A DNA stretch of 64,000 nt from NCBI GenBank assembly GCA_902771695.1, contig CACXXP010000001.1, positions 45,862-109,861 of the forward strand, read 5' to 3'. This DNA is from an uncultured Pseudomonadota bacterium. GTDB lineage: Bacteria > Pseudomonadota > Alphaproteobacteria > Rs-D84. This document shows, piece after piece, positions 25,748-50,435 of the stretch. How positions within the stretch are numbered: position 1 is the first letter of the stretch; each line of letters opens with the position of its first letter. The notes beneath the pieces were generated by a model. That model worked only from the letters and a program-made list of their open reading frames with translations. It was not told where the DNA came from and searched no databases. The translations under genes and the position numbers were made by a program.

Positions 25748-26212
25748 ATGTCCAAAGAGATAAAATTCTGTAAACCGGTTGGGAAATATTATTTTTTAAG
25801 CCCATTGTCAGAATTTCCAATAAAGATGTCTGTTGATGGGGTGGAATATGTTTTCCCAACCGTTGAACATTATTACCAAGCAATGAAATTTTACGCCACT
25901 GATTCGCGTTTTGCGGTTATTTTGGCGTTGAAAAATCCTGATGATGCGCGGTTGTTAACCAAAACACCTGAATACAAGGTAAACCGCCGTATTGGGTTTG
26001 ATGATATGAAATTTTCAATTATGGAAAACGCATTACGTGCAAAGTTTGCTCAGAATACAGATGCGGCCGATTTATTGTTATCAACAGGCGATGCAATATT
26101 ATCAAAATCGTGTGATGTTTGTTATCGTTGCGGTTTTGGGCGCGGCGGAAATAACCGTATGGGGCGAATGCTGATGCAAATTCGTGATGAGCTAAAGGCA
26201 AGTAAAAACTAA
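25748..26212 (+). CDS. NADAR (YbiA-like, DUF1768) N-glycosidase-family protein.
   Basis: 154 aa. Family-typical motifs FxxPLSEFP…VEHYYQAMKF…LLSTGDAIL…NRMGRMLMQIRDEL. Confidence 0.7.
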   Translation: MSKEIKFCKPVGKYYFLSPLSEFPIKMSVDGVEYVFPTVEHYYQAMKFYATDSRFAVILALKNPDDARLLTKTPEYKVNRRIGFDDMKFSIMENALRAKFAQNTDAADLLLSTGDAILSKSCDVCYRCGFGRGGNNRMGRMLMQIRDELKASKN

Positions 26213-26811
26213 TCTTGTTGTTCCGGCTTTTTATATTCGCATGCCAATTTTGAATACAACAAGTGATCCATGTATGTACCATCAGGCATACGATTTGCTT
26301 GGCGGTCTGTGCCATCAAGATGATACCCACTGGATTCAATAGATTTTATTGATTCTTGATTCCCGGCCATTGTTTGACGACATACACGATTAACTTGTAA
26401 TCTGTTAAATGCTAAATCTTCTAATTTATTGTGAACTTCGCGGTTAAATCCATGCCCCCATGCAGATTTTATAAACCATACACTTGCACACTGTAATGTT
26501 TTAGATTCTGGCCAGTAATGCACACGCATGTATCCGATAAAATTGTTGTCATGGAAAATATAATATACACATCCGTTTTTGTATTCTGAATCAAGTTTCA
26601 TACGTTCCTGAGTTTCTTCAAGAGATTGTGGCAAGTGTGACTTGCGTGATACCGAAAACCACATGTATTTAAAATCTTCTGGGTTTTCGTTTTTCAGAAC
26701 ATTCCATACAATTTGTGCATTTTCGGCATTTGGTTCCAACATGCGCAATTCCAATCGTTCGGTTTGTAGGTTCCGTCTAAACAATTCCAAGAATTTTTCC
26801 ATGAACGTCAT
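26209..26811 (-). CDS. GNAT-family N-acetyltransferase (RimL-like).
   Basis: 200 aa. IGYMRVHYW…CASVWFIKSAWGHGFNREVHNKLEDLAFNRLQVNRV… is the GNAT core. Convergent with the NADAR gene, with a 4-nt overlap. Confidence 0.65.
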   Translation of the reverse strand: MTFMEKFLELFRRNLQTERLELRMLEPNAENAQIVWNVLKNENPEDFKYMWFSVSRKSHLPQSLEETQERMKLDSEYKNGCVYYIFHDNNFIGYMRVHYWPESKTLQCASVWFIKSAWGHGFNREVHNKLEDLAFNRLQVNRVCRQTMAGNQESIKSIESSGYHLDGTDRQANRMPDGTYMDHLLYSKLACEYKKPEQQD

Positions 26812-28931: not shown

Positions 28932-30011
28932 ATGCGTAATATGCCAGATGAACCATCATTAGCAGAAATTATCGTAGATAAAACCGGTATTGAACCAGAT
29001 CAGTATTTAAAGGGTTGTCAAGATCGGCTAAAAGAAGACGCAGATTTATCACAGGTCATTTTGAATAATACAAACCTGCGTTCTGTGGATTTAATGCAAT
29101 ATTTTCCGGTTGATCCGCATTATAATAAACTATTGGTAAATGATTTGAAACTGAGAAATTCGCGTTTTCTGAATCAGTTTGGAAATATTTATACTATGCC
29201 AAAAATACCACAGGCACGTATGGCAGATGGTGACGACGATATACATTCTGATCCAAAATTGGTCCGAATATGTGATGAATTTCTATATTTTATGTTTGGT
29301 GGGGTTTCTTTTACCTGCACCCATGATTATTGGTGGGGCCCAGACCCAAAAAGTAATGCGCATGCCAAAGATATGTTTGAAATTCAATATGGAATAAAAT
29401 TAAGTGATGTGTATATATCGTTGGAAGAATTGGCCAGTACCGCATGCATGAATTCTATTTTCACAGAAATAGATGATTTTTTTGTGACCGGTAATTACGA
29501 TAATACTGTATTAACAATTTGGGATAATGATTTACCATATGGGGCCCAGGGTTCATGCGAAAAACATGCATGTAATTTCAGACCTGTGTTTTGTGTGGAC
29601 CAAGGGGTTCCGGTTAAGTATATTAAAACAGTTAACGATGATGGTATGTTCACACGGGAATACGTGGCGGAACAACGACACAAATATGCCCAACAACGCA
29701 CACAAACATTGAAAAAGTTGGGCGAATTTTATCGGTGTAATAACCCCAACGATTATGCCGTGACCGGTTATCCAACCGATATAGATTTTATTGTAAAAAC
29801 CGGTCTGTGTGAATTTACTTTTCTGTGTTATGACCGTTCATCGCAACGGGGTGATTTTCTGATTACACGCGTTCGTTACAAAACAGATGGAACAGACCAA
29901 AAATATACAATTAACAAGTGCGATTTTAGGAATCTGCCAAGAAAGATAGATGATATCCACCGCGCCCGCGCATTACATTTTAACAAAATGTATGGTCCAA
30001 AAGGTAGATAA
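28932..30011 (+). CDS. Hypothetical protein (ORFan).
   Basis: Long ORF 28860..30011. Start assigned at MRNMPDEP. Its 3' terminal 24 nt are duplicated at 30907..30930. Confidence 0.4.
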   Translation: MRNMPDEPSLAEIIVDKTGIEPDQYLKGCQDRLKEDADLSQVILNNTNLRSVDLMQYFPVDPHYNKLLVNDLKLRNSRFLNQFGNIYTMPKIPQARMADGDDDIHSDPKLVRICDEFLYFMFGGVSFTCTHDYWWGPDPKSNAHAKDMFEIQYGIKLSDVYISLEELASTACMNSIFTEIDDFFVTGNYDNTVLTIWDNDLPYGAQGSCEKHACNFRPVFCVDQGVPVKYIKTVNDDGMFTREYVAEQRHKYAQQRTQTLKKLGEFYRCNNPNDYAVTGYPTDIDFIVKTGLCEFTFLCYDRSSQRGDFLITRVRYKTDGTDQKYTINKCDFRNLPRKIDDIHRARALHFNKMYGPKGR

Positions 30012-30014
30012 TAT

Positions 30015-30731
30015 TTATTTAGATTTTTGTTTTTCACATAAATCCAGATATTCGCGCAATATGGCGGTCATCACCGAACGATAGTCCTTTTCATATGTAA
30101 ATAATTTGCAAAAATCGTTAAATCCCGCTTCTTCCCAATCTATGATGGCAACGACGTCAAATGTTTTTGGGTCCATTATAAAATTATATTTTACATCATT
30201 TTGGCACCATCCGTGCAAGATGGATGATTTTTCAGTCGCCGTGGTTTTTAAATCGCGAATTTCTTTTGGGTCGCTGGTACCGATGATGTATAAAAACTTT
30301 GCCAATTGTTTTGCAATTTTGGATTCTATTTCTTGTGGGACTTTTTTCGGTGGAAACTGTTCAAGATTTATTCCGGCAATATATGGATATTTGCGAACCG
30401 CAATACCATCAAAGTCCAATATTTCCATATCTGGAATTGCAATAGGGGAAATTTGGCGGAATGCATCGGTAATTCGTTTTTCACGCATGGCCTTGTCATA
30501 TCCATTGCCATGGCCTGGGAATTTGAATATATATTTATTATCTGCATTTATAACCAAATTACGGGAACCATGACCGACAATCTTTTTAATATTCTTGAAT
30601 TTTCCCAATGAATTAACAAATTTAATGCATTTATTAACATAGGTGCGATTGTCCAATAAAAAGCGAACCCGATTGCGTGTGGTGCGGTTTGGAATAAACC
30701 GACAAAATAATTTGATAAAAAATTTTCCCAT
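30015..30731 (-). CDS. APH/ChoK-like kinase-fold protein.
   Basis: Gly-rich loop and Lys (GHGSRNLVINADNKYIFKFP), catalytic ILHGWCQNDVKYNFIMD (HxxxxND), and IDWEEAGFND (DFG-equivalent). Convergent with the previous gene. Confidence 0.55.
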   Translation of the reverse strand: MGKFFIKLFCRFIPNRTTRNRVRFLLDNRTYVNKCIKFVNSLGKFKNIKKIVGHGSRNLVINADNKYIFKFPGHGNGYDKAMREKRITDAFRQISPIAIPDMEILDFDGIAVRKYPYIAGINLEQFPPKKVPQEIESKIAKQLAKFLYIIGTSDPKEIRDLKTTATEKSSILHGWCQNDVKYNFIMDPKTFDVVAIIDWEEAGFNDFCKLFTYEKDYRSVMTAILREYLDLCEKQKSK

Positions 30732-30906
30732 ATTTAATCCTTTTTGGAACATGGTCGGTACAAGACAACTGTCCTAGGGCTATGGTCATAATAAATTATT
30801 TATTGTTTAGAATCAAGTAGGGGAATTCAGGTTTACCGCCAGTTATGTATTTCTTGGCTGTAATATAATACCTGTTTTTGTTGCTGTTGCGCATATTCTA
30901 TTCAAT

Positions 30907-30932
30907 AAAATGTATGGTCCAAAGGGGCGTTA
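30907..30932 (+). repeat. Duplicated 3' end, encoding …FNKMYGPKGR-stop, of the gene ending at 30011. A direct repeat of about 24 bp.
   Basis: AATAAAATGTATGGTCCAAAGGGGCG compared with AACAAAATGTATGGTCCAAAAGGTAG at 29985-30010. Confidence 0.6.
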
Positions 30933-31272
30933 GTTCTGGTCATTAAAAACCAATTTTTTGTGTTTTATAACGATAGTATATTTTTTCCTATGATGAAAGT
31001 TTTTATGAAAAATAAATATTGAAAAAATATTGGAAAACCAATATGTACAGGCCTTTTTTAATCGTATGGTACGAAATTACGTGTTTATAACACAATATTC
31101 CTAATGTGGTGGGGTTATCTTGTTGTTTATATAATGTTTTTTCTATGCCAATTGGTATGATTTATGGTTTCCTTATACCTTTTTTTAGATATCTGATACA
31201 TAAAAACAGGATAAAACAAATTTCCTGGGAATGAATATAATGTGAATAGTGTTACAACCAAAGGAGTAAAAA

Positions 31273-31500
31273 ATGACGCATCAAGATATATGGCAAGCAA
31301 TAGATAAATTCGCGTTTCAGCACAACATGTCTTGTTCCGGGTTGGCAAGATTTTCTGGTTTGGATGCGACAACATTTAACAAGAGTAAACGTTGGTCAAA
31401 GTATGGTCAACCAAGATGGCCTTCGACAAACAGTATCGCAAAAATATTAAATTCTACGGGGAAAAAGTTGGAAGATTTTGTAAAATGTATCTGCGACTAA
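31273..31500 (+). CDS. XRE-family (Cro/CI-type) helix-turn-helix transcriptional regulator.
   Basis: 75 aa. HTH segment NMSCSGLARFSGLDATTFNK. Confidence 0.6.
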   Translation: MTHQDIWQAIDKFAFQHNMSCSGLARFSGLDATTFNKSKRWSKYGQPRWPSTNSIAKILNSTGKKLEDFVKCICD

Positions 31501-31543
31501 ATATTTTTGTTTACAAAAAGGTTTGGCTGTATAATATAGAAAT

Positions 31544-32446
31544 ATGTCAACACTGAAGTCAAAGATAATTTTATTAAAAGAATTGCTGGCGTTAAAGGAG
31601 GTTGTTGATAAGGGTAGTATTCAAGTCGCCGCCGGTGAAAACGGCATCAAGAATTCTAATTTGTCCCAATTGGTCAAAAATTTAGAAGACAGATTTAATA
31701 CTAAACTTATCAACCGCGGTTTTGATGGCAGCCAACCAACAAATTCTGCCCAGCTTATATACAATGATATCTGTGCCATAGAAGAATTGCTTAACAAGAT
31801 TTCAGAAAATTTTGTAGATATGGATTCTTTATCTGGTTCTATGTCTGTGTGGACCGAAGAAGGTTTATTTGGCAGTTTCATATTGAAAGATTTGTCAGAA
31901 TTCTATGCTAAATATCCTAAAATTCGTTTGGAATTATTTATGAGAAAAGAACCAGATATCAACACGATGGATATCTTGATTATTAAACCAAAATTACATC
32001 CAAATATTCATGGTACAGTATTGTTCAAATTTAAAACTCATTTAAAGTTTTATACCAGCAAAAAATATCTGGCAGAACATGGTGTACCACAAAATATAAA
32101 TGATTTATTGGAAAATCATAATTTATGCATGGTTTATCGGTATATGAATCTGCCGGAATGTCAAAGTATTATAAAGCGTGCAAAACATTTAAACACTACA
32201 TCTGATTCATTGGCATTGATATATCGTTTGGTTAATGATGGTGATGGTATCACGGTATTTCCATCATGGTTTGAAGAAAGCAGTAAAAATCTTGTTTGTA
32301 TCAAGGACTTTGATTTTGAATATGAAATGGAAACACAATGCATGTGCAGAACAGAGATTGCAGAATCACCAAAAGTTCGTGCATTTGTTAATTTCTTTAT
32401 AGATTTCTGTACTGGTCACAATGTCCCTATTGACATATATTACTAA
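31544..32446 (+). CDS. LysR-family transcriptional regulator.
   Basis: 300 aa. N-terminal wHTH (LLALKEVVDKGSIQVAAGENGIKNSNLSQLVKNLEDRFNTKLINR) plus a substrate-binding-like C-terminal region. Confidence 0.65.
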   Translation: MSTLKSKIILLKELLALKEVVDKGSIQVAAGENGIKNSNLSQLVKNLEDRFNTKLINRGFDGSQPTNSAQLIYNDICAIEELLNKISENFVDMDSLSGSMSVWTEEGLFGSFILKDLSEFYAKYPKIRLELFMRKEPDINTMDILIIKPKLHPNIHGTVLFKFKTHLKFYTSKKYLAEHGVPQNINDLLENHNLCMVYRYMNLPECQSIIKRAKHLNTTSDSLALIYRLVNDGDGITVFPSWFEESSKNLVCIKDFDFEYEMETQCMCRTEIAESPKVRAFVNFFIDFCTGHNVPIDIYY

Positions 32447-32543
32447 TTATTTCAGTTTTTTTGTTTCATTGTGTTAAAAATGCCCCAGTGGGCGATTTGT
32501 TAACAGTGGTTGTGGGGTGCTTGCAAAATGCGGATTGAAATCG

Positions 32544-33089
32544 TTATTCAAATTGGTCTAGTTCTTTAATAAAAACATCACAATTTATAAACCAAGCATA
32601 ATGTTCAGAAAAGTTATCAAATGTTATAACATCAATATCTTTGTGGTATTTCTTTATCCATTTATATACGGTTTTAAAATCAATATATAAAAAAGTTGTT
32701 GATATATCATGTGTTTCACGAATAGACGAAAAGATGCTAAAAAATCTAGTTTTATTACCGATTTTAATTTGTGGCACAATATTCACATTTTCTAGATTTA
32801 GATAATTATTATTGCGACAATGCAACAATTTCATAATACTTTTATCTTTTGTGTCAGAAATATCAATAGGTATAAGTATTTTTGATTGTGACAATATAGT
32901 AAAAAAACGCGATAAAGTTTCATTATTTTTTAATGTTATGACCTCAGCCAATGCACTGGTTAAAGTTCCGCTAAAATAATCAGTATCGTTTTCTTGGTGA
33001 ATAATGCTGTAATCAAAATTATACTCAAAATCTTCAAAATAGTTTTCGTCCAGTACATATTCTGACAAAGATGTTTTCATGTTTGACAT
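32544..33089 (-). CDS. Hypothetical acidic protein (181 aa), downstream gene of the inverted-repeat-bounded pair.
   Basis: No motifs recognised. Very AT-rich codon usage. Its start codon lies 1 nt after the upstream gene's stop. Confidence 0.45.
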   Translation of the reverse strand: MSNMKTSLSEYVLDENYFEDFEYNFDYSIIHQENDTDYFSGTLTSALAEVITLKNNETLSRFFTILSQSKILIPIDISDTKDKSIMKLLHCRNNNYLNLENVNIVPQIKIGNKTRFFSIFSSIRETHDISTTFLYIDFKTVYKWIKKYHKDIDVITFDNFSEHYAWFINCDVFIKELDQFE

Positions 33090-33090
33090 A

Positions 33091-33633
33091 TTATTTTCTT
33101 GTTTTATGCAACCAATCGTCTAAATCTTTTAATTTCAATGATTGCCCCAAACCGTTTCTGCTTTTACAAAATTGCACCGGTTTTAACATGGCCAACTGTT
33201 TATTGGTATCTTTATCATTTAACCAAAAACCATAATAATATCCAAATACAGGAACACCGTTTTTTATGTATTTTAATAATAATTCCTTGTTTCTTGATAA
33301 AGATTTTTGTGCAAAAGTATCCCACTTCCAATGTTTACTATCGTTTGAACGCTTGGTATGATATGGATAATATTCCAACGCAAGTATATCTTTGTCTTTT
33401 ATCCCGTATTTATCAGTTTTATTTAAAACTTTATCCCACCATTCACAATATTCACGATATATATGCAAATCCATGCCAGACGATTTGTAAAAACCATCTT
33501 TATCCATAGGATATTCGGCTAACCTTTTGTAATATTTTGGGTCGCCACCAGGATTACATAACAAAATAATCAGTTTTGGTGATTTTTCATTGCCAATTCG
33601 AGATACAGGAAAAATTTTTTCTGTTTCTATCAT
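33091..33633 (-). CDS. Hypothetical protein (180 aa), upstream gene of the inverted-repeat-bounded pair.
   Basis: Rich in Tyr/Trp/Lys. No known catalytic motif recognised. Confidence 0.45.
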   Translation of the reverse strand: MIETEKIFPVSRIGNEKSPKLIILLCNPGGDPKYYKRLAEYPMDKDGFYKSSGMDLHIYREYCEWWDKVLNKTDKYGIKDKDILALEYYPYHTKRSNDSKHWKWDTFAQKSLSRNKELLLKYIKNGVPVFGYYYGFWLNDKDTNKQLAMLKPVQFCKSRNGLGQSLKLKDLDDWLHKTRK

Positions 33634-34004
33634 AATTTCTCCCTTAACAACTATATATTAATCATATTTTATAATTTATTCAACGCTATTTTGCCAGCAC
33701 CCCACAACCACTTTGAACAGATATGCTGGTTAGAGCGATTTTATGTTGGTTTTGTAATATTATGTTTTGTTCGAGTGTTATAAGCGGTTCGAAAGTGTGG
33801 ATAACGACATAATTTTTCTAAAAATTACTTTCGAACTTGGCGGAAATTTATTTTTTCACTCTCTGGAATGCGCACGAGACCTTGATAAACAATAACCAAC
33901 CGCAGGGCAAAAACTCTATTAAAAATATCCGTTTTTGTGCGGCCGCGTTTGTTCATCTGCGTATTCGCCATGCGCTTCGCTCTGGCGGATCCGTGCGCCC
34001 AGGA

Positions 34005-34038
34005 ATAAATAAAAACACCCAAAGGGGTGTTTTTGTTT
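34005..34038 (-). terminator. Rho-independent terminator downstream of tRNA-Gln. It is also usable from the + strand.
   Basis: ACACCCAAAGGGGTGT hairpin flanked by A-run and T-run. Confidence 0.6.
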
Positions 34039-34043
34039 ATTCT

Positions 34044-34116
34044 GGTTGGGGCGCACGGATTCGAACCATGATAAAGAGAACCAAAATCTCTTGTCCTACC
34101 ATTAGACGACACCCCA
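34044..34116 (-). tRNA. tRNA-Gln (anticodon UUG).
   Basis: Reverse complement folds as: acceptor UGGGGUG/CGCCCCA (U1-A72, as in E. coli tRNA-Gln), U8, D arm GUCU-AAUGGUA-GGAC, anticodon arm AGAGA-UUUUGGU-UCUCU (U33, U34U35G36), T arm CAUGG-UUCGAAU-CCGUG, discriminator A, and an encoded CCA. Confidence 0.8.
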
Positions 34117-34257
34117 AAAAGTAGTTTGATTATAGTCAGTTTTAGCTTTTTTGCAATAATAAAATAAAAAAAAGTGAATTTTGGGCTTGAAATCATAATT
34201 ATTAAAAATTATAATGATTTTTGGTTTTAATAAAAGCAAGCAGAATAGGGGGCAAAC

Positions 34258-34707
34258 ATGGTTCGTAAAGAATTGATTAGTTTGTTAGAAAAAAATATTA
34301 TTTTGTTTTCTAAATTGTCTGAACGTATAAACCGGGCCCAGATAGATTTTAGGCCGTATTCACGGACCCAGGTGCAATTGCTGATGCGGTTGTATATCAG
34401 TGGTCGGACACGTCTGAAAGACTTGGCGGCACGAGAATTTGTGCCGGCACCAAATCTGTGTGCCGCGTTTCGTAAAATGGAAAGTGATGGGATTGTTTCG
34501 CGGACCGTTGATGAAAACGATCGCCGCAACACATGGTATTCGGTGACGGAACAGGGGGCCAAGGTTGCAACAAAATTTATAAATATGTTTCACCAAGTAA
34601 TGGCGACAATGTTCAAAGATATTGAAAAGGCGGATGAAGAAAAACTGATAGAATCTTTCAAAACAATGAATTGTATTTTGGAAAAGATGGGGGATAAAAA
34701 TGCGTAA
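34258..34707 (+). CDS. MarR-family transcriptional regulator.
   Basis: 149 aa wHTH (…RTQVQLLMRLYISGRTRLKDLAAREFVPAPNLCAAFRKMESDGIVSRTVDENDRRN…), first gene of the efflux operon. Confidence 0.75.
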   Translation: MVRKELISLLEKNIILFSKLSERINRAQIDFRPYSRTQVQLLMRLYISGRTRLKDLAAREFVPAPNLCAAFRKMESDGIVSRTVDENDRRNTWYSVTEQGAKVATKFINMFHQVMATMFKDIEKADEEKLIESFKTMNCILEKMGDKNA

Positions 34708-36019
34708 GGTTTTTGGTGCTATTATTGCTCTATACGGTGGTTGCTGCGGTATACATGCATATGCGATGGATTTATCTTTGAATGATGCGGTGCAAAAAAT
34801 AGTTGCAGAATCGCATGATCTGAAAAAAGCCGATGCCAATGTAAAAAAGGCCCAGGCATCATTAGATGTCGCAAATTCAAGTCGCTGGTTCAATATAGAA
34901 GGAACGGCAACATATATGAATTTGATAAATGTTGAAAAACCGCTGGATTCGTACAATGTGAAATTACCGCCTGAAATCGGTGGTCTGATTCCGCAAATGG
35001 CGGGGATTACCGATATAGATATCCCAGATAATATCTTTATGGCCGGCGTAAAAATCACACAACCTATTTATACATTTGGTAAAATTGGTAATGCGGTGGA
35101 CAGTGTTCGCAGTGCAATAAAGATGAGTGAATACAGCAAAGAAATGGTAACGCGAGAGGTTAAATATGCCGCCGCTGATATGTATTGGACGGCAAAAATG
35201 ACCGATGAAATTGTTAAAATCGCCCAGAAAGATTTGGATAACGCCATGTCGGCCCGTAAAAAATTGTCGGGGGCGGGGCGTGCAAACCGCAGTAATTTGG
35301 TTAAAATTGAATCTGATATTGCAACAAAGAAAATTAACCTGTCGGATGCAGAATTTAATCGCGACACTTCACATCGTATGTTAAAGATATTGGCGGGTAT
35401 AGATGTGGACGAACCATTAAATCTGACCGATGAATTTCCAAAAGATTTTCCAGAAATGGAAAACAAAAAATTGACCAATACGCCGGAATGGCAGGTATTA
35501 GACCAACAGGTTAAAATGTACGAAGCCAAGGCGTCTTCACAACGTGCCGGGGGGTATCCAACATTGGCCGCGGTCGGTGCGTATGATTTTGTGACAATGG
35601 ATAAGGATTTAAAAAATATGTTTAATGGTCATGCAGACCAAGCGGCATATTGGGGATTGGCGTTAAAGGTTCCGATTTTCAGTGGTGGGGTAAATCGTGC
35701 AAATGCCACGGTTGATGCCATGAATGCCGAAGCCGCACACCAGGATTTAGATAAATCCAAAAAGATTACATCAGAAAAATATTCCAATGCAATAAAGCAA
35801 TATAATCATTTGCGTGAAAACTTAAAAGGTTTGGAAAACGCACGTGATTTGGCCGCCAAAGCATACGGTTTTTCGCGTGATCGTTTTGCGGCCGGTCAGA
35901 CATCTGCGGTTGAATTGGCGGATGTTTCATCGGGACTGTATCAATTGGATATGGCGTTGCTTAATGCAAAATATAAAATATTGATGTCGGCGGAATCTGT
36001 TAAAAAATTGGGTGAATAA
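34700..36019 (+). CDS. TolC-like outer-membrane efflux channel protein.
   Basis: 439 aa. Signal peptide and the two-repeat alpha/beta organisation of OEP family proteins. Overlaps marR by 8 nt. Confidence 0.7.
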   Translation: MRKVFGAIIALYGGCCGIHAYAMDLSLNDAVQKIVAESHDLKKADANVKKAQASLDVANSSRWFNIEGTATYMNLINVEKPLDSYNVKLPPEIGGLIPQMAGITDIDIPDNIFMAGVKITQPIYTFGKIGNAVDSVRSAIKMSEYSKEMVTREVKYAAADMYWTAKMTDEIVKIAQKDLDNAMSARKKLSGAGRANRSNLVKIESDIATKKINLSDAEFNRDTSHRMLKILAGIDVDEPLNLTDEFPKDFPEMENKKLTNTPEWQVLDQQVKMYEAKASSQRAGGYPTLAAVGAYDFVTMDKDLKNMFNGHADQAAYWGLALKVPIFSGGVNRANATVDAMNAEAAHQDLDKSKKITSEKYSNAIKQYNHLRENLKGLENARDLAAKAYGFSRDRFAAGQTSAVELADVSSGLYQLDMALLNAKYKILMSAESVKKLGE

Positions 36020-36021
36020 CA

Positions 36022-36618
36022 ATGAAAATATTTGGAAAAAATTATGATGATGAAAAGGTAAAAAAAATCTCCTATAGGGCGACTTTTGTGCTTGTCATAC
36101 TGTGGTTTGTATATCGTTTTGTTATGGTTGCAATTGAATCACAAATGACAGTGTTTAATCCAATTCGTATTTCTCAATCCAATGGCACGATTGTTGAAAC
36201 AATGGTTGCATCCAAGAAAAACGATTTTATTAAAATACCAATTGATATAAAAAATAATCGTGCGTATGTATCTGGTGAGTACCGCAATAAATTACGCAGT
36301 GGGCAAAAAATTGGTGATGGCGAAATTGTTTCTGTATCGGGTGGTTTAGATTTGGATACAGGAATGTATGTTGTGCGGACACGTGGGGTGACGGATGGGG
36401 TTGCGTTTGTGTCTGTTCCTGCAAATGGATATTTTATTCCGGCCTATGCGGTGCGTGATGGTACCGTTATGATAATGGAATCGGGAACGGCGGTGGCGCA
36501 TCGTGTGGATGTTGTTGCCCAAGATACAGAATATGCGTGTGTGACAGGTGATATCAAAGATAGTGATGTAATCGTATTGTCCAAGGTTGCCACAGGCCAG
36601 AAAATAAAAGTTAAATAA
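36022..36618 (+). CDS. Truncated membrane-fusion (periplasmic adaptor) protein-like component.
   Basis: 198 aa. N-terminal TM anchor followed by beta-rich segments resembling MFP beta-barrel/membrane-proximal domains. No coiled-coil hairpin is apparent. Confidence 0.45.
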   Translation: MKIFGKNYDDEKVKKISYRATFVLVILWFVYRFVMVAIESQMTVFNPIRISQSNGTIVETMVASKKNDFIKIPIDIKNNRAYVSGEYRNKLRSGQKIGDGEIVSVSGGLDLDTGMYVVRTRGVTDGVAFVSVPANGYFIPAYAVRDGTVMIMESGTAVAHRVDVVAQDTEYACVTGDIKDSDVIVLSKVATGQKIKVK

Positions 36619-36634
36619 AGCGGGGGAAATCAAA

Positions 36635-39600
36635 ATGTTAAAGTTTTTTGTTAAACGTCCAGTTACAACAATTATGTTTGTTTTATTGTTTGTTGTATTG
36701 GGTTTTGTTTCGTATCCAAAAATGAACGTAGAACGGACGCCCGCACTTGATTTCCCAATGGTGACGGCGACATTTATTTACCCCGGGGCCGCACCCGCAG
36801 AAATAGAATCCCAGGTTATTAAAAAGGCCGAAGACGCCATGTCCCAGGTTCCAGAGTTGAAAAAACTGACGTCCCAGGCGTTCGAAAACGGCGGATACGT
36901 TATGGCGGAATTTAATTTGGGGGTAAACGTTAATGACAAGGCCAGTGAAGTTAAATCAAAAATAGACGCATTGGCATCTGAATTTCCAACGGATTTGAAA
37001 CAACCTGTTATTGAAAAATTAAATCCGTTGCAAACATCTGTGGTTGATATTGCATTAAGTGGACCGTCTTTGCGTGATTTGCAGGAATACGCCGATAATG
37101 TATTTTCCAATAAACTTACATCTATAAATGGTGTGGCCAGTGTGACCGTGTTCGGTGGTGAAAAACGTGCGATTCGTGTTGCATTGAATCCACAAACGAT
37201 GGCGGCACATGGTGTGACGATGATGGATGTTATATCGGCAATGGGGGCGAATAATCTGAATGTGCCGGGTGGAAAAATAGAGGTTGGTGCCGATTCGTCA
37301 AATGTACGTTTCATTGGTGAATTTGCATCGGTTGACGCAATTAAAAATTTGCATATAACCACGGCCGAAGGTCAACGTTTCATATTGTCTGATATCGCAA
37401 CCGTGACAGATGCGGCACGTGATTTAGATACTGGGGCACGTTTCAATGGCAACCCAGTTGTTATCGCGTCTATTATCAAGGCGTCTGATGGTAATGCGGT
37501 TAAGATATCGCGTGATTTGAAAAAGCAATTACCAGAATTCCAGGCAAATTTAGAATCACACGTGCCGGGGGCAAAAATGGAAATAATTTCTGATTCGTCC
37601 ATTGTTGTTTCCAATGAAACATCCAGTACGATAAATGGAATTATCCTTGGGGTTATATTTACTATTTTGGTTTTGTTGGCGTTTACAAAAAATTGGCGTT
37701 CAACCGTTATTGCGGGCGTTGTGATTCCGGCATCATTGATTGCGGGTTTATTCTTTGTTAATGCAAATGGGTTCACGATAAATGCGATGACCTTGTTGGC
37801 GTATTCATCGGCATTGGGAACGTTGGTGTCAAACGCAATTATTCTTATAGAGGCCGCATTACAAGAAATGCGTAATGGAAAAAATGCAGAAGATGCCGCG
37901 GTTGATGGAACAAAACGTGTTGCGGTATCTGTGTTGGCTGGGGTTGGAACAAATGTCGTGGTGTTTTTACCGTTGGCGTTTATGGGTGGTATCGTTGGAA
38001 AGTTCATGATGCAATTTGGTATGACGGTTGTTTATTTAACCTTATTGTCATTGGTGTTTTCGTTCACTTTGACGCCAATGATGATTGCCAAGATTTTGCG
38101 TATTGTGAAGGTAAAGCAACCGGTAAAAGTTGAAAAGAAACAAAAAGAAGAAAAACATAATTGGCTAACAAGGTGGTTTGCATATCAGTACAAACATTCT
38201 GGTCGTGTTATATTGTTGGCGTTTTTGGTGTTGATTGCTTCGGTTGTCTTAACACGATTCACGGGAAATGAATTCAGTCCATCAACCGATGCGAACGAAA
38301 TAAATATTACTGCCCGTGCGCCAATGGGGGCGACATATGAAAAATCTCAATCTATTGCGATGCAAATAGAAAAAGTGCTGCATGATGTGCACGAGGTTAA
38401 ATCAACATCTGTTAAAATCGGGGATCGTGGTTTGCAAAATATTGCCGTTAAAATCAAATTGGTTGATAGAGATTCCAGAAGAAAAAGTGACAAGAAGATT
38501 GCGCGCGAATTATTACCTGCATTGTCAGAAATTCCTGATGCAGAAATTCAGATTCGTGCAGGCGAGGGCGTTTCTTCGGTAATTGCTGCGGATATTGTTC
38601 TGAATATTTATGGTGACGATGACGCATTGCGCAGTCAATATGCAACAATGGCATTAGACACAATTAACAATATCCCCGAAGTTCAAACGGCGGTCTTTGC
38701 GCAGCAAATACCTGGTGAAGAAATTAGATTTGTTCCAGACCCGGATCAAATGGATTTTTGGGGTGTAAAAAATTCTTATGCGGGGTCTGTACTGCGGTCT
38801 GCGCTGTATGGAAACGATACATATAAATATAAAGAGCATGGTGAAGAATACCCGATTGTCTTGGAATTTGCCAAGGCATTCAAGGGACGTGCAATGTTTG
38901 ACGATGTATTGTTGAATTCACAAAAGGGGATGGTCGCATTGTCGCAATTAGGAAAAATTGAAACGACAACAGCAACGCCGGATATTCGCCGTTTGGATAA
39001 AAGTCGTGTGACCGAAATAGATATAAATTTAGGAAAATCAACCAGTGGTCCCGTCCAGGCGAAAATAGTCAAGGCATTGAACAAAATGGATTGGAAACCT
39101 GGGTATGGATATGAGTTTGGTGGTATGGCGGAAATTCAATCTGAAACCACAGGTGAAATTGGCAGTGCATTTTTATTGGCAACAGTATTAACATTTATGT
39201 TGTTGGCGGCGATATTAAATTCTTGGATTCATCCGCTGACGATTGCGACGTCTATTATAACCAGTTTCGCCGGCGTATTTACATTACTGTTTTTATCGGG
39301 TGCATCTATGAATGTTGGTGCGATGCTTGCTTTTGTTATGTTGGTCGGTTTGGTGGTTAACAATAATATTTTGGTGTTGGAACCGACAATACGACGTATA
39401 CAAAATGGCGAAAATATAAAAGTCGCATTATGGAGTGAACTTTCTGATAAAAAGAATATGGTGTTGATGACATCTATCGCAATTATGGCAGGAATGTTAC
39501 CACAATTATGGAGTGCCGATGGTATGAAATCGGCCATGGCGGCTGTTATGATTGGGGGTATGGGGGCCAGTTTGGTTTGGACGTTCACATTAACCCCCGC

Positions 39601-39649
39601 GTTATTCTTTGCAATGGAAAGATTACGTCAAAAATTAAAACGTAAATAA
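36635..39649 (+). CDS. RND-family efflux permease (AcrB/HAE1-like).
   Basis: 1004 aa. Twelve TM helices with two large periplasmic loops; canonical N-terminus MLKFFVKRPVTTIMFVLLFVVLG. Confidence 0.9.
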   Translation: MLKFFVKRPVTTIMFVLLFVVLGFVSYPKMNVERTPALDFPMVTATFIYPGAAPAEIESQVIKKAEDAMSQVPELKKLTSQAFENGGYVMAEFNLGVNVNDKASEVKSKIDALASEFPTDLKQPVIEKLNPLQTSVVDIALSGPSLRDLQEYADNVFSNKLTSINGVASVTVFGGEKRAIRVALNPQTMAAHGVTMMDVISAMGANNLNVPGGKIEVGADSSNVRFIGEFASVDAIKNLHITTAEGQRFILSDIATVTDAARDLDTGARFNGNPVVIASIIKASDGNAVKISRDLKKQLPEFQANLESHVPGAKMEIISDSSIVVSNETSSTINGIILGVIFTILVLLAFTKNWRSTVIAGVVIPASLIAGLFFVNANGFTINAMTLLAYSSALGTLVSNAIILIEAALQEMRNGKNAEDAAVDGTKRVAVSVLAGVGTNVVVFLPLAFMGGIVGKFMMQFGMTVVYLTLLSLVFSFTLTPMMIAKILRIVKVKQPVKVEKKQKEEKHNWLTRWFAYQYKHSGRVILLAFLVLIASVVLTRFTGNEFSPSTDANEINITARAPMGATYEKSQSIAMQIEKVLHDVHEVKSTSVKIGDRGLQNIAVKIKLVDRDSRRKSDKKIARELLPALSEIPDAEIQIRAGEGVSSVIAADIVLNIYGDDDALRSQYATMALDTINNIPEVQTAVFAQQIPGEEIRFVPDPDQMDFWGVKNSYAGSVLRSALYGNDTYKYKEHGEEYPIVLEFAKAFKGRAMFDDVLLNSQKGMVALSQLGKIETTTATPDIRRLDKSRVTEIDINLGKSTSGPVQAKIVKALNKMDWKPGYGYEFGGMAEIQSETTGEIGSAFLLATVLTFMLLAAILNSWIHPLTIATSIITSFAGVFTLLFLSGASMNVGAMLAFVMLVGLVVNNNILVLEPTIRRIQNGENIKVALWSELSDKKNMVLMTSIAIMAGMLPQLWSADGMKSAMAAVMIGGMGASLVWTFTLTPALFFAMERLRQKLKRK

Positions 39650-39653
39650 TAAA

Positions 39654-39682
39654 GACGGGGGTATATGCCCCGTTTTTATTTG
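39654..39682 (+). terminator. Rho-independent terminator after the RND operon.
   Basis: GACGGGGGTATATGCCCCGTT followed by TTTTATTT. Confidence 0.65.
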
Positions 39683-39734
39683 CGATATTGTTTTGATACG
39701 TTATAATGGTATTGATATATCCAAAGGAATTAGA

Positions 39735-40331
39735 ATGCAGAAAACCGTTGATGTGGTTTTGTTTGATTTTGATGGTACATTATCGTGGCCAGATTCTAAT
39801 TTGGCATTTGCACGCTACTGTTTTCGGCACAGTTTGCGTCCGTGGTTATTTTTGCCGATTATTGGGGTGGCTATGATATGGCGGTGGTTCAGGCCGGGTG
39901 GGGTAAATTGGCGTGAATACAGTCGGCGATTTTTGACTGCGGATATGGTTCATCGGTTTGTTCCGGAATTCATCAAAATACACAAGCGTAATCGATTCGG
40001 GTGGGCCGCCGAACGTGTCGCGGCGGAACGTGCGGACGGGAATATTGTTATGCTGGTTTCTACATCACCGGATTATTTAATACCGAAATTGGTTGCTGAT
40101 ATGAAATTTGATGTGGTTATTTGTTCCAAAGTGTCTGCCAAGAAACCATGGAAATATCGTTTTTTATGCTATGGAAAGAATAAAGTATATGCGATGGATG
40201 AATGGGCCCGAGAAAACAAATTTATACCACATGTGGTGCGTGCATATTCAGACAGTAAATCTGATTTGCCAATGATGGAAATCGCAGATACGCAAATATG
40301 GATAAATCCAAAAACAGGCATGCCAAAATAG
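39735..40331 (+). CDS. HAD-superfamily hydrolase.
   Basis: Motif I, DFDGTL, appears directly after the chosen Met. Motif IV-like Asp near the C-terminus. Confidence 0.55.
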   Translation: MQKTVDVVLFDFDGTLSWPDSNLAFARYCFRHSLRPWLFLPIIGVAMIWRWFRPGGVNWREYSRRFLTADMVHRFVPEFIKIHKRNRFGWAAERVAAERADGNIVMLVSTSPDYLIPKLVADMKFDVVICSKVSAKKPWKYRFLCYGKNKVYAMDEWARENKFIPHVVRAYSDSKSDLPMMEIADTQIWINPKTGMPK

Positions 40332-40336
40332 AAGTA

Positions 40337-41554
40337 TTACTTTTGATATAAAAATTTGGATACTTTTTTTAATGACCATACCAGCGGTATCAGCATAATA
40401 AAGGTAAAGCCCAATGTGGTTAATATTCCACATTCATCCAACAAGAACTTTGCCACAATTAAAAACACTGCCCCAACAACGGTTGTTACCATGGCCTTGG
40501 TGGATAATACAGTGCCACGTTCTGTGGAACGAATACTATGATGAATAAGTGAATTATATTGCAATTTGTTCATACTGTGGATTGCCGGTGTAATCGCCAT
40601 TATTGTGCATAATATATACACAAGAGTCATATTTGTTGTATGCATTATTAATATTCCAACAACGATACCAATTGCAACATCCAATATGGTGATTATTGAT
40701 GTATTCATATCACCATATTTATCGCAAATCTTGTATGCATATTTGGAAAATATTATGCGCGAAAATTGGTTGAGTCCTATATAAAAACCGAACAGTTCAA
40801 CTGGGACATGTGTGGTTTCCATAATTGGTTGCAAAATCCAAAGCATTATAACGGTAAAGGCCCCAAGTAATGCCGGAAAGAAAATCAGATTTCGCAGTTT
40901 TGGATTTTTTATTGTGTTGTATGTTATACTGAGCGCGTCTTTGATTGCTGTTGTATGTTTGACTTTACGTTTGATTTCGGTCAGTTGTGGCAAGAATATA
41001 AATGTGGCCATTCCAATCGCGACAAATGATGCTTCTAGCCATAGAATATTATCGCCACCAATATGAACAAATAATATTCCACCAAATATGGATGCGATAA
41101 AGCTTGCCGTGATGCCAAAGGTCATTATGCTGCCAAATTCTTTTATAAATTGTTTTTGGCTTTTGTTTCTTTTCATTAAATCGTATGTGTATGCTTCTAA
41201 AGTTCCGGAATTCAATGCACTGGCGATACCAAGTAACGCCTCACCAAGCATAATTGAAAAAAATCCATTCGCCAAGGCAAGTGCAGAAAAGCCAAGAAAT
41301 GAAAATATTGTTCCGGTTATAAGGACGTTTTTACGGCTAAAGCAATCGGACATGTACCCAGATGGTATCTCAAACAAAAATGCTGCCAACCTGAAAATCC
41401 CCTGAATCAAAAAGAAGTCACCAACTGTGATACCCTTTTGGGTGTATACTAAGACTATAACTGGGATAACAAACATCAGATTGTTACAAAAATAACCGAA
41501 CCTTAAAATGTTAAGGCCACGTGATACAGATTTATTTATTTCTTTTTTTGCCAT
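40337..41554 (-). CDS. MFS transporter.
   Basis: 405 aa. Twelve predicted TM helices and an MFS-type loop motif between TM2 and TM3. Confidence 0.7.
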   Translation of the reverse strand: MAKKEINKSVSRGLNILRFGYFCNNLMFVIPVIVLVYTQKGITVGDFFLIQGIFRLAAFLFEIPSGYMSDCFSRKNVLITGTIFSFLGFSALALANGFFSIMLGEALLGIASALNSGTLEAYTYDLMKRNKSQKQFIKEFGSIMTFGITASFIASIFGGILFVHIGGDNILWLEASFVAIGMATFIFLPQLTEIKRKVKHTTAIKDALSITYNTIKNPKLRNLIFFPALLGAFTVIMLWILQPIMETTHVPVELFGFYIGLNQFSRIIFSKYAYKICDKYGDMNTSIITILDVAIGIVVGILIMHTTNMTLVYILCTIMAITPAIHSMNKLQYNSLIHHSIRSTERGTVLSTKAMVTTVVGAVFLIVAKFLLDECGILTTLGFTFIMLIPLVWSLKKVSKFLYQK

Positions 41555-41626
41555 AGGAATATAATACCATTTTACAGTTAGATTATCAAGGATGTGGGCA
41601 TGTCAAAATAATCTAATTATTTATGG

Positions 41627-42526
41627 CTATTTATCAAAATCTAATTCTTTTATTTTCTCGGCACGTGGGGCAATTTTATTTATAGATGTTTGCAATTGTT
41701 CTATGTCTGATTGCGCCATATTGAAATGTTGTGATACTTTGCCGGCCCGTTCTGCCAAACGCCCCAGGTCTGTTATCAACATATCTAATTCACGCTTTAT
41801 TTGACCTGCAACGCGTTTTATTTTTATGTCGGAAAGCACCGCACGAATAGTGTTCAATGTTGCCCATAATGTTGATGGTGAAACGATGAATACTTTTTTG
41901 CGTGCGGCATATTCTACCGCACCGGGAAATTCACGATGTAATGTTTCAAATATAGATTCCGATGCGATGAACATCATTGCACTTTCGGCTGTTTTGCCGG
42001 GGATAATATATTTTTCTGCGATGGCATCTATGTGTTTACGAACATCTAATTCAAATTGTTTTCGGTATAGTTCTGGATTATCCGCCTTGGTCATACGCGA
42101 AAAAGATTCCAATGGAAATTTACTGTCTATAATCATATCGCCAGGCGGATATGGCAAACGGATTACACAATCGGGTCGTACACCTGTTTCCATAACGTAT
42201 TGAAATGCGTATGTTTCCGGCGGCATAATATCCGCCACCAAATCTTCCAATTGACGTTCGCCGAATGTCCCGCGTGCCTGTTTGTTTCCCATAAGGATAT
42301 CTTTGAAATTTGCAATATCGGCACTTATATTTTTCAATTCTGTTGCGTTTTGTGCCAAAACCCCTAATCGTTCAGCAAGTCGTTCACGCAGGCGGCTGTT
42401 ATCTTCGCGCAGGGCCGACATATCAACCCCAGTTGGGCGCATCAATAACGCCCCCAACATTATGATTATAACCGCACACATCACAATTAAAATATAAGTT
42501 GTCATTTGGATTTCCTTTGCTATCAT
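41627..42526 (-). CDS. rmuC: DNA recombination protein RmuC.
   Basis: N-terminal TM then coiled coil. GTFGERQLE…PDCVIRLP…MMFIASESIF…VFIVSPSTLWATLNTI parallels the E. coli RmuC segments GNWGEVVL…PDVIVRLP…VLMFIPVEPAF…IMLVSPTTLLVALRTI. Confidence 0.75.
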   Translation of the reverse strand: MIAKEIQMTTYILIVMCAVIIIMLGALLMRPTGVDMSALREDNSRLRERLAERLGVLAQNATELKNISADIANFKDILMGNKQARGTFGERQLEDLVADIMPPETYAFQYVMETGVRPDCVIRLPYPPGDMIIDSKFPLESFSRMTKADNPELYRKQFELDVRKHIDAIAEKYIIPGKTAESAMMFIASESIFETLHREFPGAVEYAARKKVFIVSPSTLWATLNTIRAVLSDIKIKRVAGQIKRELDMLITDLGRLAERAGKVSQHFNMAQSDIEQLQTSINKIAPRAEKIKELDFDK

Positions 42527-42548
42527 TTTATTATAAAAGGATTTTTAG

Positions 42549-43049
42549 ATGTTGCAAATGAAACTTTGTGGTGATTTGGTGTTGCGTGAACATTGTTCAC
42601 CCATAGATGCCATTACATCCGATATTTTGGGTGCAATGGATGAAATGGTCAAGATGATGCGTGAACAAAATGGCGTTGGGCTTGCGGCGCCCCAGGTCGG
42701 AATCACAAAACGTTTCTTGGTTATGATGAATCCGGATTCAGGGGAGGTTTTCAAGATGATAAACCCCACCATAACGTCACGCAGTGAAGAAGTGGCGGTA
42801 ATAGAAGAGGGGTGTTTATCTGTATTGGGGCCTGATAATTTACCGGTATATGCGAATGTGGCGCGGCCTGCAAATGTTACAATTGAATGGACGGGTATAG
42901 ACGGTAAACGCTATGCGGCGGAAATGGGCGGAATAATGGCGCGCATTGCGCAACATGAAACGGATCATTTGGATGGTATATTGTTTATTGACTATCTGCC
43001 CCCGGCAAAGCGCGAAATGGTTATGCGAAAAGTAAGGCGGCACAAATGA
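42549..43049 (+). CDS. def: Peptide deformylase.
   Basis: Motifs GVGLAAPQVG, EGCLS and QHETDHLDG. Confidence 0.92.
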   Translation: MLQMKLCGDLVLREHCSPIDAITSDILGAMDEMVKMMREQNGVGLAAPQVGITKRFLVMMNPDSGEVFKMINPTITSRSEEVAVIEEGCLSVLGPDNLPVYANVARPANVTIEWTGIDGKRYAAEMGGIMARIAQHETDHLDGILFIDYLPPAKREMVMRKVRRHK

Positions 43050-43852
43050 ATGTAGTTTTAATGGGAACCCCAGATTTTGTTGTGCCTGTGTTTGATGCCG
43101 TGGCATCGCGGCATAATGTTATTGCGGTGTTTACGCGTGGACCAAAACCGGTTGGGCGTAAGCATGTAATTACAAAATCCCCTGTACATATTTGGGCAGA
43201 ATCTCGAAATATTCCTGTGTATCATAAACCCAGTGAATATAATTTTAATCCGGATATGGTGTTTGTGGCGGCATATGGTGCAATATTGCGTGATAATATA
43301 TTGAATTCCGCACCGTGTATAAATCTGCACCCAAGTTTGTTGCCATGTTATCGTGGGCCATCGCCAATCAGAACTGCAATTATGAACGGTGATACGGAAA
43401 GCGGTGTGTGTTTAATAAAAATGACAGATGAATTGGATGCGGGTGATATTTTAATGTGTCAAAAATTTGATATATCAATTGATGACACAAACGAAACAGT
43501 GGAAGCAAAGGTTTCACAAATCGGTGCAAAAATGATTTTGGCATATATGGAAAATCCAGACAAATATGCACCCGTAAAACAAAGTGGAAAAATCGTCTAT
43601 ACGGCGAAAATAGACGCATACACCGAAATCATAGATTGGAACAAACCCGCAATAGAAATTCATAATCTGGTGCGTGCATTGGGGGCCGGTCGCACAAAAA
43701 TAAATGGTATAGATGTCAAAATATTAAAGACGAAAATGAACGGTGACCAACTAGAAATTGTAACCGTTCAGCCCGCAGGTAAAAAATCAATGGATTGGAA
43801 AAGTTTTGTAAATGGTTTGCATGGCGATGAAATCAAGTTTGGCGAAAAATGA
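43046..43852 (+). CDS. fmt: Methionyl-tRNA formyltransferase.
   Basis: 268 aa. SLLP..RG.SP formyltransferase motif (INLHPSLLPCYRGPSPI). Follows def with a 4-nt overlap. Confidence 0.88.
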   Translation: MNVVLMGTPDFVVPVFDAVASRHNVIAVFTRGPKPVGRKHVITKSPVHIWAESRNIPVYHKPSEYNFNPDMVFVAAYGAILRDNILNSAPCINLHPSLLPCYRGPSPIRTAIMNGDTESGVCLIKMTDELDAGDILMCQKFDISIDDTNETVEAKVSQIGAKMILAYMENPDKYAPVKQSGKIVYTAKIDAYTEIIDWNKPAIEIHNLVRALGAGRTKINGIDVKILKTKMNGDQLEIVTVQPAGKKSMDWKSFVNGLHGDEIKFGEK

Positions 43853-46495: not shown

Positions 46496-46576
46496 GCGTT
46501 TGATTATAGTATTTTATTTTGTTGATTCGCAACCAAGAATTTTTGTATCATATCAATACATAAGGAGAAAAAACTT

Positions 46577-48460: not shown

Positions 48461-48463
48461 ATA

Positions 48464-48712: not shown

Positions 48713-48796
48713 AGATGTTTTCCCCTTGCTTATGTTCCGCCTTTTATGATATACAATAAATTGTAAAAATCAACAAAAACACGAGAGATTGTAACA

Positions 48797-50167: not shown

Positions 50168-50170
50168 CAA

Positions 50171-50416: not shown

Positions 50417-50435
50417 TTTTTATCCCCCATAATTT

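Follow-up and report, generated by a model that had tools for sequence, protein, structure and literature searches.

A direct repeat of a gene's 3' end around a kinase-like gene as the probable scar of an imported block in an uncultured alphaproteobacterium

Does a direct repeat on both sides of a gene mean that the gene was inserted there? The question arises at a locus in a 64,000-nt stretch of contig CACXXP010000001.1 (in the following: the window) from an uncultured alphaproteobacterium of the lineage Rs-D84. Here the last codons of an open reading frame (ORF) are repeated on the far side of a convergent gene for a kinase-like protein. The original prediction for this stretch took the repeat for the trace of a kinase module that had inserted into the 3' end of the ORF and duplicated its target, or else for the deletion remnant of a paralogue, and it saw the repeat-associated positions of both APH-like kinase genes of the window as consistent with mobile cargo. 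The comparison with related strains leads us to a different answer. The second copy of the repeat is probably the orphaned tail of a homologous gene at the edge of an imported block of 8.9 kb, of which the left end was joined illegitimately and the right end by homologous recombination, and some strains would later have lost the kinase-like gene. By its genome-collection matches the organism of the window is Candidatus Enterousia-like and from gut or rumen. The relatives are uncultured alphaproteobacterial metagenome-assembled genomes from gut and rumen; their loci are referred to by L numbers.

The repeat and its native surroundings

The direct repeat of the 3' end of the ORF is real and longer than had been described. 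It comprises 33 nt with an exact core of 17 nt, while the second copy, which had been placed at 30907-30930, has to be moved by about 3 nt. The period from copy 1 to copy 2 is 922 nt. As had been claimed, the interval consists of the minus-strand kinase-like gene and the region upstream of it (∼170 nt). The 17-mer of the core occurs in the window only at the two positions given in Table 1, even if up to two mismatches are allowed. Its expected count is 0.05 and none of 100 shuffles gave two or more matches, so the repeat is not a random similarity.

Both copies translate into F-N-K-M-Y-G-P-K-G-R followed by a stop codon. They differ at 7 of the 33 nt. The differences are spread over 6 codons, including AGA/CGT and the stop codons TAA/TAG, and all of them are synonymous. 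For 7-8 random substitutions a synonymous-only outcome has a probability of P < 1e-5. The two copies of L038, which has TAC for TAT, differ at 8 of the 33 nt and are 76% identical compared to 79% in the window. Synonymous differences of this kind fit orthologous or paralogous gene tails under one protein constraint and do not fit a target-site duplication. To the left of the F codon the likeness of the two copies ends sharply (RARALH vs VAVAHIL). Copy 2 lies outside any intact gene and in-frame stop codons are found upstream of it. An inverted repeat, CATTTT-AAY-AAAATG, spans the H-F-N-K-M codons of the ORF tail. The T/C polymorphism of L038 (TAT vs TAC) is situated at window position 30915, inside copy 2, and the contigs of three independent assemblies (L015, L016/L021 and L022) start exactly at window position 30916. 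Mixed strains probably break the assembly graphs at 30915-30916.

The ORF belongs to a small family with 27 homologues among the database clusters. The C-terminus ARAxHFNKMYGPKxR-stop is strongly conserved and is among the most conserved parts of the family. The mechanical call of the ORF starts at 28860 and gives 383 aa, which is the mechanical maximum, and the length is probably 356-359 aa. We obtained no Pfam or NCBIfam match for the ORF, and an AlphaFold model from 28 sequences contained nothing usable (mean pLDDT 47).

Table 1. Features of the locus in window coordinates, listed from left to right.
Feature	Position	Strand	Remark
ORF, 359 aa from MRNMPDEP	28932-30011	+	gene calls of relatives 356-359 aa
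Copy 1, resident ORF tail (last 10 codons and stop)	29979-30011	+	TTT AAC AAA ATG TAT GGT CCA AAA GGT AGA TAA
17-nt exact core AAAATGTATGGTCCAAA	29985-30001	+	same 17 nt at 30907-30923
APH-like kinase gene, 238 aa from MGKFF	30015-30731	-	convergent with the ORF; Pfam APH E=4.7e-5
Promoter-like site upstream of the kinase-like gene	30788-30816	-	consensus match only
g108 relic, last 22 codons (IEYAQQQQKQVLYYSQEIHNWR) and stop of resident g108	30833-30901	-	tblastn 100% to L037 g108 aa 87-108
Illegitimate joint	30901-30905		g108 codon 87 fused to ORF-family codon -10
Copy 2, probable orphaned last 10 codons and stop of the donor's ORF homologue	30901-30933	+	TTC AAT AAA ATG TAT GGT CCA AAG GGG CGT TAG
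Divergent block, probably imported	30901 to ∼39760		78.7% identical to the L040/L045 allele; flanks at least 99%
HTH gene (in block)	31273-31500
LysR gene (in block)	31544-32446
SseB-like/180-aa cassette (in block)	32516-34030		later arrival in the block
SseB-like 181-aa gene (in cassette)	32544-33089	-
180-aa gene (in cassette)	33091-33633	-
tRNA-Gln gene (in block)	34043-34116	-
MarR gene (in block)	34258-34707
OEP gene (in block)	34700-36019
198-aa gene (in block)			listed between OEP and RND pump
RND pump gene (in block)	36635-39649
Start of HAD gene			right end of block
Right end of block, in HAD gene	39700-39760		last dense difference 39758
ComEC/Rec2-type competence gene	44561-46495	-	Pfam PF03772; DUF4131 and Competence in gene calls of relatives

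To decide whether the kinase-like gene is a newcomer we have to consider the gene order of the relatives. Within the species, the same convergent pair of ORF and kinase-like gene with the same gap of 3 nt is found in L001, L034-L037, L040/41 and L052/53. At least six other haplotypes of the species have the pair, and L002 and L004, which belong to other species, share it with a protein identity of 76-77%. In the ORF-kinase loci of the relatives the kinase-like gene is followed by the minus-strand gene g108. This gene is intact (108 aa) in L037, L002 and L004, and it is truncated at its 5' end to aa 48/51-108 in L001 and in L034/L035 (same contig as L040). The kinase protein is 100% identical in L001. 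The 891-nt kinase unit of the window (30012-30900) shows 0 differences from L034 and is also identical to L040 over 30012-30870. L034/35/36 have neither copy 2 nor the HTH and LysR genes, and the allele of copy 1 is identical to the tails of the relic-free kinase-haplotype strains L034/35/36/40. Judged from gene order, ORF and kinase-like gene can be regarded as a native pair at this position, and the native order in the species would read ORF (+), kinase-like gene (-), g108 (-), variable genes, tRNA-Gln, MarR and RND efflux operon.

As the pair is syntenic within the species and in other species, a kinase insertion is not supported. The original prediction had itself named synteny across the clade as an observation speaking against mobile kinases, and this is what we found for the kinase-like gene (L001, L034-L037, L040/41, L052/53, L002 and L004). 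The DNA that appears foreign at this locus lies to the right of copy 2. The proposed duplication of the target fares no better. The repeats of a transposon's target-site duplication are identical when created and enclose a segment that is foreign to the site and has defined ends (terminal inverted repeats) and usually a transposase. Here the 33-nt copies are only 79% identical with synonymous differences, copy 2 adjoins a truncated gene on its left and not the end of an element, and the kinase-like gene follows the ORF in all strains of the kinase haplotype and in other species. The kinase unit contains only the kinase-like gene and a gene relic, and no terminal inverted repeats were reported at its ends.

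The similarity of the protein to known kinases is limited to a part of its length. Against Pfam APH it scored 23.7 bits (cut-off 23.2) with the N-lobe only (residues 64-154). The NCBIfam models for APH(2'')/Mph gave 16-20 bits against cut-offs of at least 600, and the match to APH(2'')-Id in the PDB (E=7e-5) covers residues 47-148 only. We detected no full-length match above the curated thresholds of the APH/Mph families and treat the product as a putative relative of the kinase fold. For g108 and the neighbouring small genes we obtained no family matches. A scan for promoters and terminators gave fewer promoter-like sites than shuffled sequence and nothing at the relic, and an Rfam scan of 29500-34500 returned tRNA-Gln only.

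The divergent block and the three haplotypes

Copy 2 forms the leftmost 33 nt of the 8.9-kb divergent block. Compared with L040/L041 (NCBI GCA_017543505.1) the window is 99.2% identical over 12 kb up to position 30905, where the similarity ends. To the right of this position the tRNA-Gln, MarR, OEP and RND-pump genes align with L040 at only 78.7%. At the joint the resident g108 reads ...attcta TCCAACATTTGTC (TCCAAC att) and the window reads ...attcta TTCAATAAAATG (TTCAAT aaa). The two sequences strictly share T30901 alone; in TnCAA they agree at 4 of 5 positions. The other end of the block is visible in the comparison with L045, which carries the L040-type alleles and extends further to the right. 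Per bin of 250 nt the identity between window and L045 is 60-87% from 34250 to 39750 (94% in the bin at 34000, which holds tRNA-Gln), and from ∼39750 to 53048 it is 98-100%, with no indel at the switch. Close to the switch, at 39700-39760, the identity goes from ∼70-85% to 99-100%. We read this right end as a homologous crossover within the HAD gene. With 76-79% identity to copy 1, copy 2 has diverged to the same extent as the remainder of the block. Relative to L037/L040, the 5' part of g108 and the genes for a hydrolase, a 249-aa protein and a peptidase S66 were lost, and the resident tRNA-Gln, MarR and efflux alleles were replaced.

At least three alleles of the operon of MarR, outer-membrane factor and RND pump (34258-39649) exist among genomes with 99% identity elsewhere. 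The identity to the efflux allele of the window is ∼79% for L040/L045, ∼92% for L026 and ∼80% for the more distant L012 lineage. This pattern suggests that the efflux locus has repeatedly been replaced by homeologous DNA.

We searched for haplotypes with the HTH and LysR proteins of the window, and three haplotypes share the same left flank. The chimeric haplotype (window, L019, L023 and L038) has both copy 1 and copy 2. The kinase haplotype, which is the native one (L034/35/36 and others), has copy 1 only. The empty haplotype (L013/L020, L014/L025, L024 and L017) has a single tail that reads TTT AAC-core-G GGG CGT TAG. The original prediction had proposed a search for strains with an uninterrupted ORF and no kinase-like gene, and the empty strains are of this kind: their ORF is intact, the kinase-like gene is missing, and between ORF and HTH they have the 340-nt spacer that is also found between copy 2 and HTH in the window. 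The empty tail is exactly the left flank of copy 1 combined with the right flank of copy 2, and the empty haplotype lacks exactly one period of 922 nt. As the empty tail is an exact hybrid, the empty and the chimeric forms differ by one crossover inside the core. The chimeric order was seen in the independent assemblies L019, L023 and L038 and thus is not an assembly artefact. All occupied strains share one type of junction.

Which of the two forms came first is a separate question. The imported block is present in the empty type as well, with 5 differences in 1.57 kb, which argues that it entered once. The chimeric form is the only one in which the illegitimate joint, donor-type bases on the left side of the core (TTC AAT; TAC in L038) and a resident-type kinase unit are preserved. 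The SseB/180-aa cassette and its linked substitutions are common to the empty type and the window lineage; L038, L015, L026 and the outgroup L012 lack them. One recombination between the copies is enough to turn the chimeric form into the empty one; for the opposite direction one has to assume a circular intermediate whose combination of alleles was not observed. The empty strains are best read as secondary deletions caused by recombination between copy 1 and copy 2, a reading that is parsimonious rather than proven. We found no localised imported tract in the left flank, where the differences between empty and occupied strains are evenly spread over 7 kb. L052 and L053, which have A-like ORF alleles, carry the kinase-like gene; the distances are star-like, so this is weak support for the polarity of a deletion.

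Deletion between short direct repeats proceeds by RecA-independent slippage or by short-homology recombination. The empty haplotype resembles the product of such a deletion in that one hybrid copy is kept, one period is lost and the crossover falls inside the 17-nt identity. It differs in that the event was not seen directly and could equally have been intermolecular, between an incoming relic and the resident ORF tail.

Origin of the second copy

From these observations we infer the sequence of events, how the DNA entered and what kind of donor it came from, as follows. In an ancestor of the window a stretch of 8.9 kb from a relative with ∼20% DNA divergence would have replaced the resident DNA from g108 to the HAD gene. 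On its right side, at ∼39760, the incoming DNA would have recombined by homology, and on its left side it would have been joined illegitimately in the middle of g108, essentially without microhomology (T, or TnCAA). In the donor an ORF homologue, or already its relic, would have been located directly upstream of HTH, and the incoming fragment would have started 10 codons before the stop. Contigs of the donor would carry TTCAATAAAATGTACGGTCCAAAGGGGCGTTAGTTCTGGTCATT. The left joint may have been trimmed by a later deletion. Recombination of copy 1 with copy 2 in the shared core, either within one molecule or with incoming DNA, would then have removed the 922-bp unit of kinase-like gene and g108 relic in some strains. 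If both copies are orthologous tails under the same protein-level constraint, this accounts for the fact that all differences are synonymous and that the identity of 76-79% equals the divergence of the block. The remnant proposed in the original prediction was correct insofar as copy 2 would be the remnant of a homologue's 3' end; the homologue appears to be a divergent allele and not a paralogue. The one hint at the route by which linear DNA may have come in is the ComEC/Rec2-type gene in the window, which would fit an uptake by transformation.

One homologous and one illegitimate end, with an insertion coupled to a deletion, are the pattern of homology-facilitated illegitimate recombination (HFIR). 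In the window both ends are mapped (30901-30905 and ∼39760), and the gain is coupled to the loss of the resident DNA between the joints. There are also differences. HFIR has been seen experimentally, whereas the present case is deduced from natural strain variation, and the block consists for the most part of homeologous (79%) and not of wholly foreign DNA. HFIR is known from naturally competent bacteria, with Acinetobacter baylyi, Streptococcus pneumoniae and Pseudomonas stutzeri as described cases, and at low frequency from conjugation in E. coli (PMC3240628). It has been proposed as the cause of orphaned 3' fragments at Rhs and type VI secretion system (T6SS) loci (PMC5361080). The orphans of the effector-immunity systems Rhs, contact-dependent inhibition (CDI) and T6SS (PMC5361080 and references therein) resemble copy 2 as detached 3' ends of a homologue downstream of an intact gene, left as scars by recombination with incoming DNA. 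In those systems a conserved portion lies 5' of a variable toxin portion, the orphans carry functional immunity genes, and they were displaced by the incoming DNA. In the window, by contrast, the orphan is a conserved tail of 10 codons with no evident toxin/immunity logic, and it would have arrived with the incoming DNA. A variant of HFIR with a linear donor anchored on the left in the ORF was rejected. It would have put donor alleles into copy 1, and both copy 1 and the kinase unit are of the resident L034/L040 type.

Several points weigh against the import as we have described it. One genome scan and one metagenome scan did not yield any lineage in which this HTH allele directly follows an intact ORF. 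The genome collection, searched with the family alignment, gave 8 loci and the metagenomes, searched with the codon-degenerate tail, gave 7 loci; these were only intact distant genes or, in the metagenome scan, the L012-type relic. As reported from the original Acinetobacter and pneumococcus studies, experimental HFIR joints typically share ∼3-10 nt, and the strict microhomology of 1 nt at the joint in the window is below this. Furthermore L012/L033, which is 14-20% divergent in the block, has a relic that is cut at codon -12, only 6 nt away, and has no ORF body. This relic looks independent of that in the window. L012 has a degenerate copy of the 3' half of tRNA-Gln ∼105 nt to the left of the relic (score 30; shuffle maximum 27) and the genuine tRNA-Gln to the right of LysR, so that its relic-HTH-LysR unit looks like a small islet bracketed by tRNA-Gln. 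Two truncations within 6 nt of each other would be expected by chance in ∼1-2% of cases. The donor may already have carried the relic, or the ORF tail may be a breakage hotspot. With respect to the polarity, the strain distances are star-like and the population recombines heavily, and the derivation of the empty from the chimeric form draws on parsimony and one set of linked characters, which is weak evidence. Finally, all data are metagenome assemblies.

A deletion alone could also have produced the joint if the ancestral locus had two members of the ORF family in tandem. The order would have been ORF1-kinase-g108 ... ORF2-HTH-LysR, and the DNA from g108 codon 87 to ORF2 codon -10 would have been deleted. 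The joint would then be a plain truncation of two genes in an interval, from ORF to tRNA-Gln, that is a hotspot with different genes in different strains, and it could be the later trim of an earlier and larger insertion. Of the two readings in the original prediction it corresponds to the deletion remnant of a paralogue. We give this scenario a small chance. None of the fetched loci has two ORF-family members in tandem, and a deletion would not be expected to leave a block that runs on through tRNA-Gln, MarR and efflux genes, collinear with those of L040, up to a clean homologous switch.

The polarity would be turned around by a Campbell-type insertion. Here the empty form would be ancestral, and a 922-bp circle of ORF tail, kinase-like gene and g108 relic would have integrated by a single crossover in the 17-nt core, which corresponds to the kinase module with target duplication of the original prediction. 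The circle would have been closed illegitimately, ORF codon -10 to g108 codon 87, in a chromosome of the kinase haplotype, and its junction, which would also be expected if the unit moves as a cassette, would read g108 relic, TTCAAT, core, AGGTAGATAA, kinase. The tails of the empty, occupied and L001-type strains do show the reciprocal pattern of attB, attL/attR and attP. The left flank of copy 2 (TTC AAT) is that of the L001/L037 ORF allele, and the kinase unit has 0-1 differences in 891 nt across backgrounds whose flanks differ by ∼1%. However, the kinase unit matches the L034/L040 type (0 differences), in which the tail is TTT AAC and not TTC AAT, and the allele combination needed for the circle was not observed. 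Two rare events are needed, the position of copy 2 at the exact left edge of a 21%-divergent block of 8.9 kb is left unexplained, and for the block of the empty type one would have to assume entry through a crossover within the final 17 nt of homology. Taken together we consider the insertion of a circle improbable.

A broader idea is that the 33-nt ORF tail, like the 3' ends of tRNA-Gln and tRNA-Met, could be a preferred joining site for small gene cassettes without an integrase in these gut alphaproteobacteria with reduced genomes. The relic-HTH-LysR and kinase units would then be cargo that trans-acting or host recombination exchanges at gene tails. There are several hints in this direction: two relics whose cuts lie at most 6 nt apart, in lineages of 14-20% divergence, the location of relic-HTH-LysR between 3' copies of tRNA-Gln in L012, three att-like scars in one window, and a near-identical kinase unit on flanks that have diverged by 1%. 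We nevertheless regard the idea as a long shot.

An integrase island, in which the conserved ORF tail is the attachment site, the copies are attL and attR and the recombinase acts in trans or was lost, is very improbable. Genomic islands at the 3' ends of tRNA or protein genes, which bring a replacement 3' end with them, share with this locus the direct repeats of a gene 3' end, the intact gene, the precise empty site and a hybrid that fits a crossover in the core. The window has two att-type duplications of tRNA 3' ends, namely a perfect 68-nt repeat at tRNA-Met and a duplication at tRNA-Gln that brackets a cassette absent from L012, L015 and L038. The relics of two lineages cut within 6 nt of each other would also fit. 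The precise hybrid empty site (L013, L014, L017, L020, L024 and L025) has less weight, as plain repeat-mediated deletion predicts the same. Pfam scans of the unit and of 20 window ORFs gave no tyrosine or serine recombinase. In contrast to an island with natural ends and a reused site, the left end of the island-side repeat is in the middle of a resident gene (g108 codon 87), all occupied strains have a single junction type, and the content of the unit is native syntenic DNA. The repeats are orthologous alleles that are 21-24% apart and not a shared att core, and in L038 the core is interrupted (TAC vs TAT) so that its copies are not identical. The last alternative, chance similarity in AT-rich sequence (the window has 39% G+C), is refuted by the uniqueness of the 17-mer, by the in-frame copies with synonymous differences only, and by the match of the peptide to the conserved C-terminus of the ORF family.

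Other repeats and variable genes, and the meaning of the locus

The perfect 68-nt direct repeat is located at 2944-3011 and 3120-3187 with a spacing of 176 nt. It consists of the last 19 nt of tRNA-Met (2888-2962) and 49 nt downstream with a terminator-like hairpin. Only 108 nt, relatively rich in G+C, separate the two copies, and the other APH/choline-kinase-like gene of the window (3290-4162) is situated just downstream. The repeat resembles a scar of the att type, located at the tRNA's 3' end.

The SseB/180-aa cassette of 1.5 kb lies beside the 3' end of tRNA-Gln. It is missing from L012, L015 and L038 with the same boundaries and an overlap of ∼21 nt. On the left it is bordered by a sequence (32507-32525) similar to a degenerate tRNA-Gln 3' end, and no recombinase was found near the cassette. 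The 180-aa protein matched the model of the anti-phage DNA glycosylase Brig1 with E=0.003 and 17 bits against a cut-off of 230, which probably is not meaningful. The 10-mer TGTGGGGTGC at 32512-32521 falls within the pseudo-tRNA-Gln end on the cassette's left border. It also adjoins the 5' truncation of g108 in L040 (∼12070) and L001 (∼8080), and may be a shared islet end.

In the relatives, the interval between kinase/g108 and tRNA-Gln spans 7975-9050 in L001, 12000-15200 in L040, 1374-4100 in L026 and 4103-4630 in L002. Its content differs: we observed a DnaJ-domain gene in L001, the genes for hydrolase, 249-aa protein and peptidase S66 in L034/L037/L040, CoiA_N and His_Phos genes in L026, and HTH-LysR in the window. 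Based on gene content, the interval can be described as a strain-variable hotspot beside a tRNA gene.

Genes of the ORF family in L002, L004, L005 and L008 are repeatedly found beside genes for small-molecule or nucleoside-type enzymes, and 25748-26811 of the window belongs to the same picture. The neighbours include APH-like kinases (two in L008) and cytidine/dCMP-type deaminases (on both sides in L005), as well as PNP_UDP_1 phosphorylase, NADAR and GNAT genes. These neighbourhoods hint at a common pathway.

If the import is read correctly, the locus is an unusually clean natural case, with both ends mapped, of a mechanism that is known mainly from laboratory transformation, in an uncultured gut or rumen lineage with a reduced genome. 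The mechanisms themselves are ordinary and the repeat would be a recombination scar of a known kind. What sets the locus apart is that both ends of the event, the parental-type haplotype and the secondary deletion product can all be read in public metagenomes. The acquired cargo would be a divergent 8.9-kb block with regulators and an efflux pump. The 33-nt duplicate of the tail, which came about by accident, would have served as the substrate for the precise loss of the adjacent kinase-like gene, and the resulting presence/absence polymorphism of this gene mimics the activity of a mobile element. Synteny and the divergence of the flanks indicate that the apparent polarity is reversed here. 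For annotation this calls for caution, as direct repeats around a strain-variable gene are insufficient evidence of an insertion.

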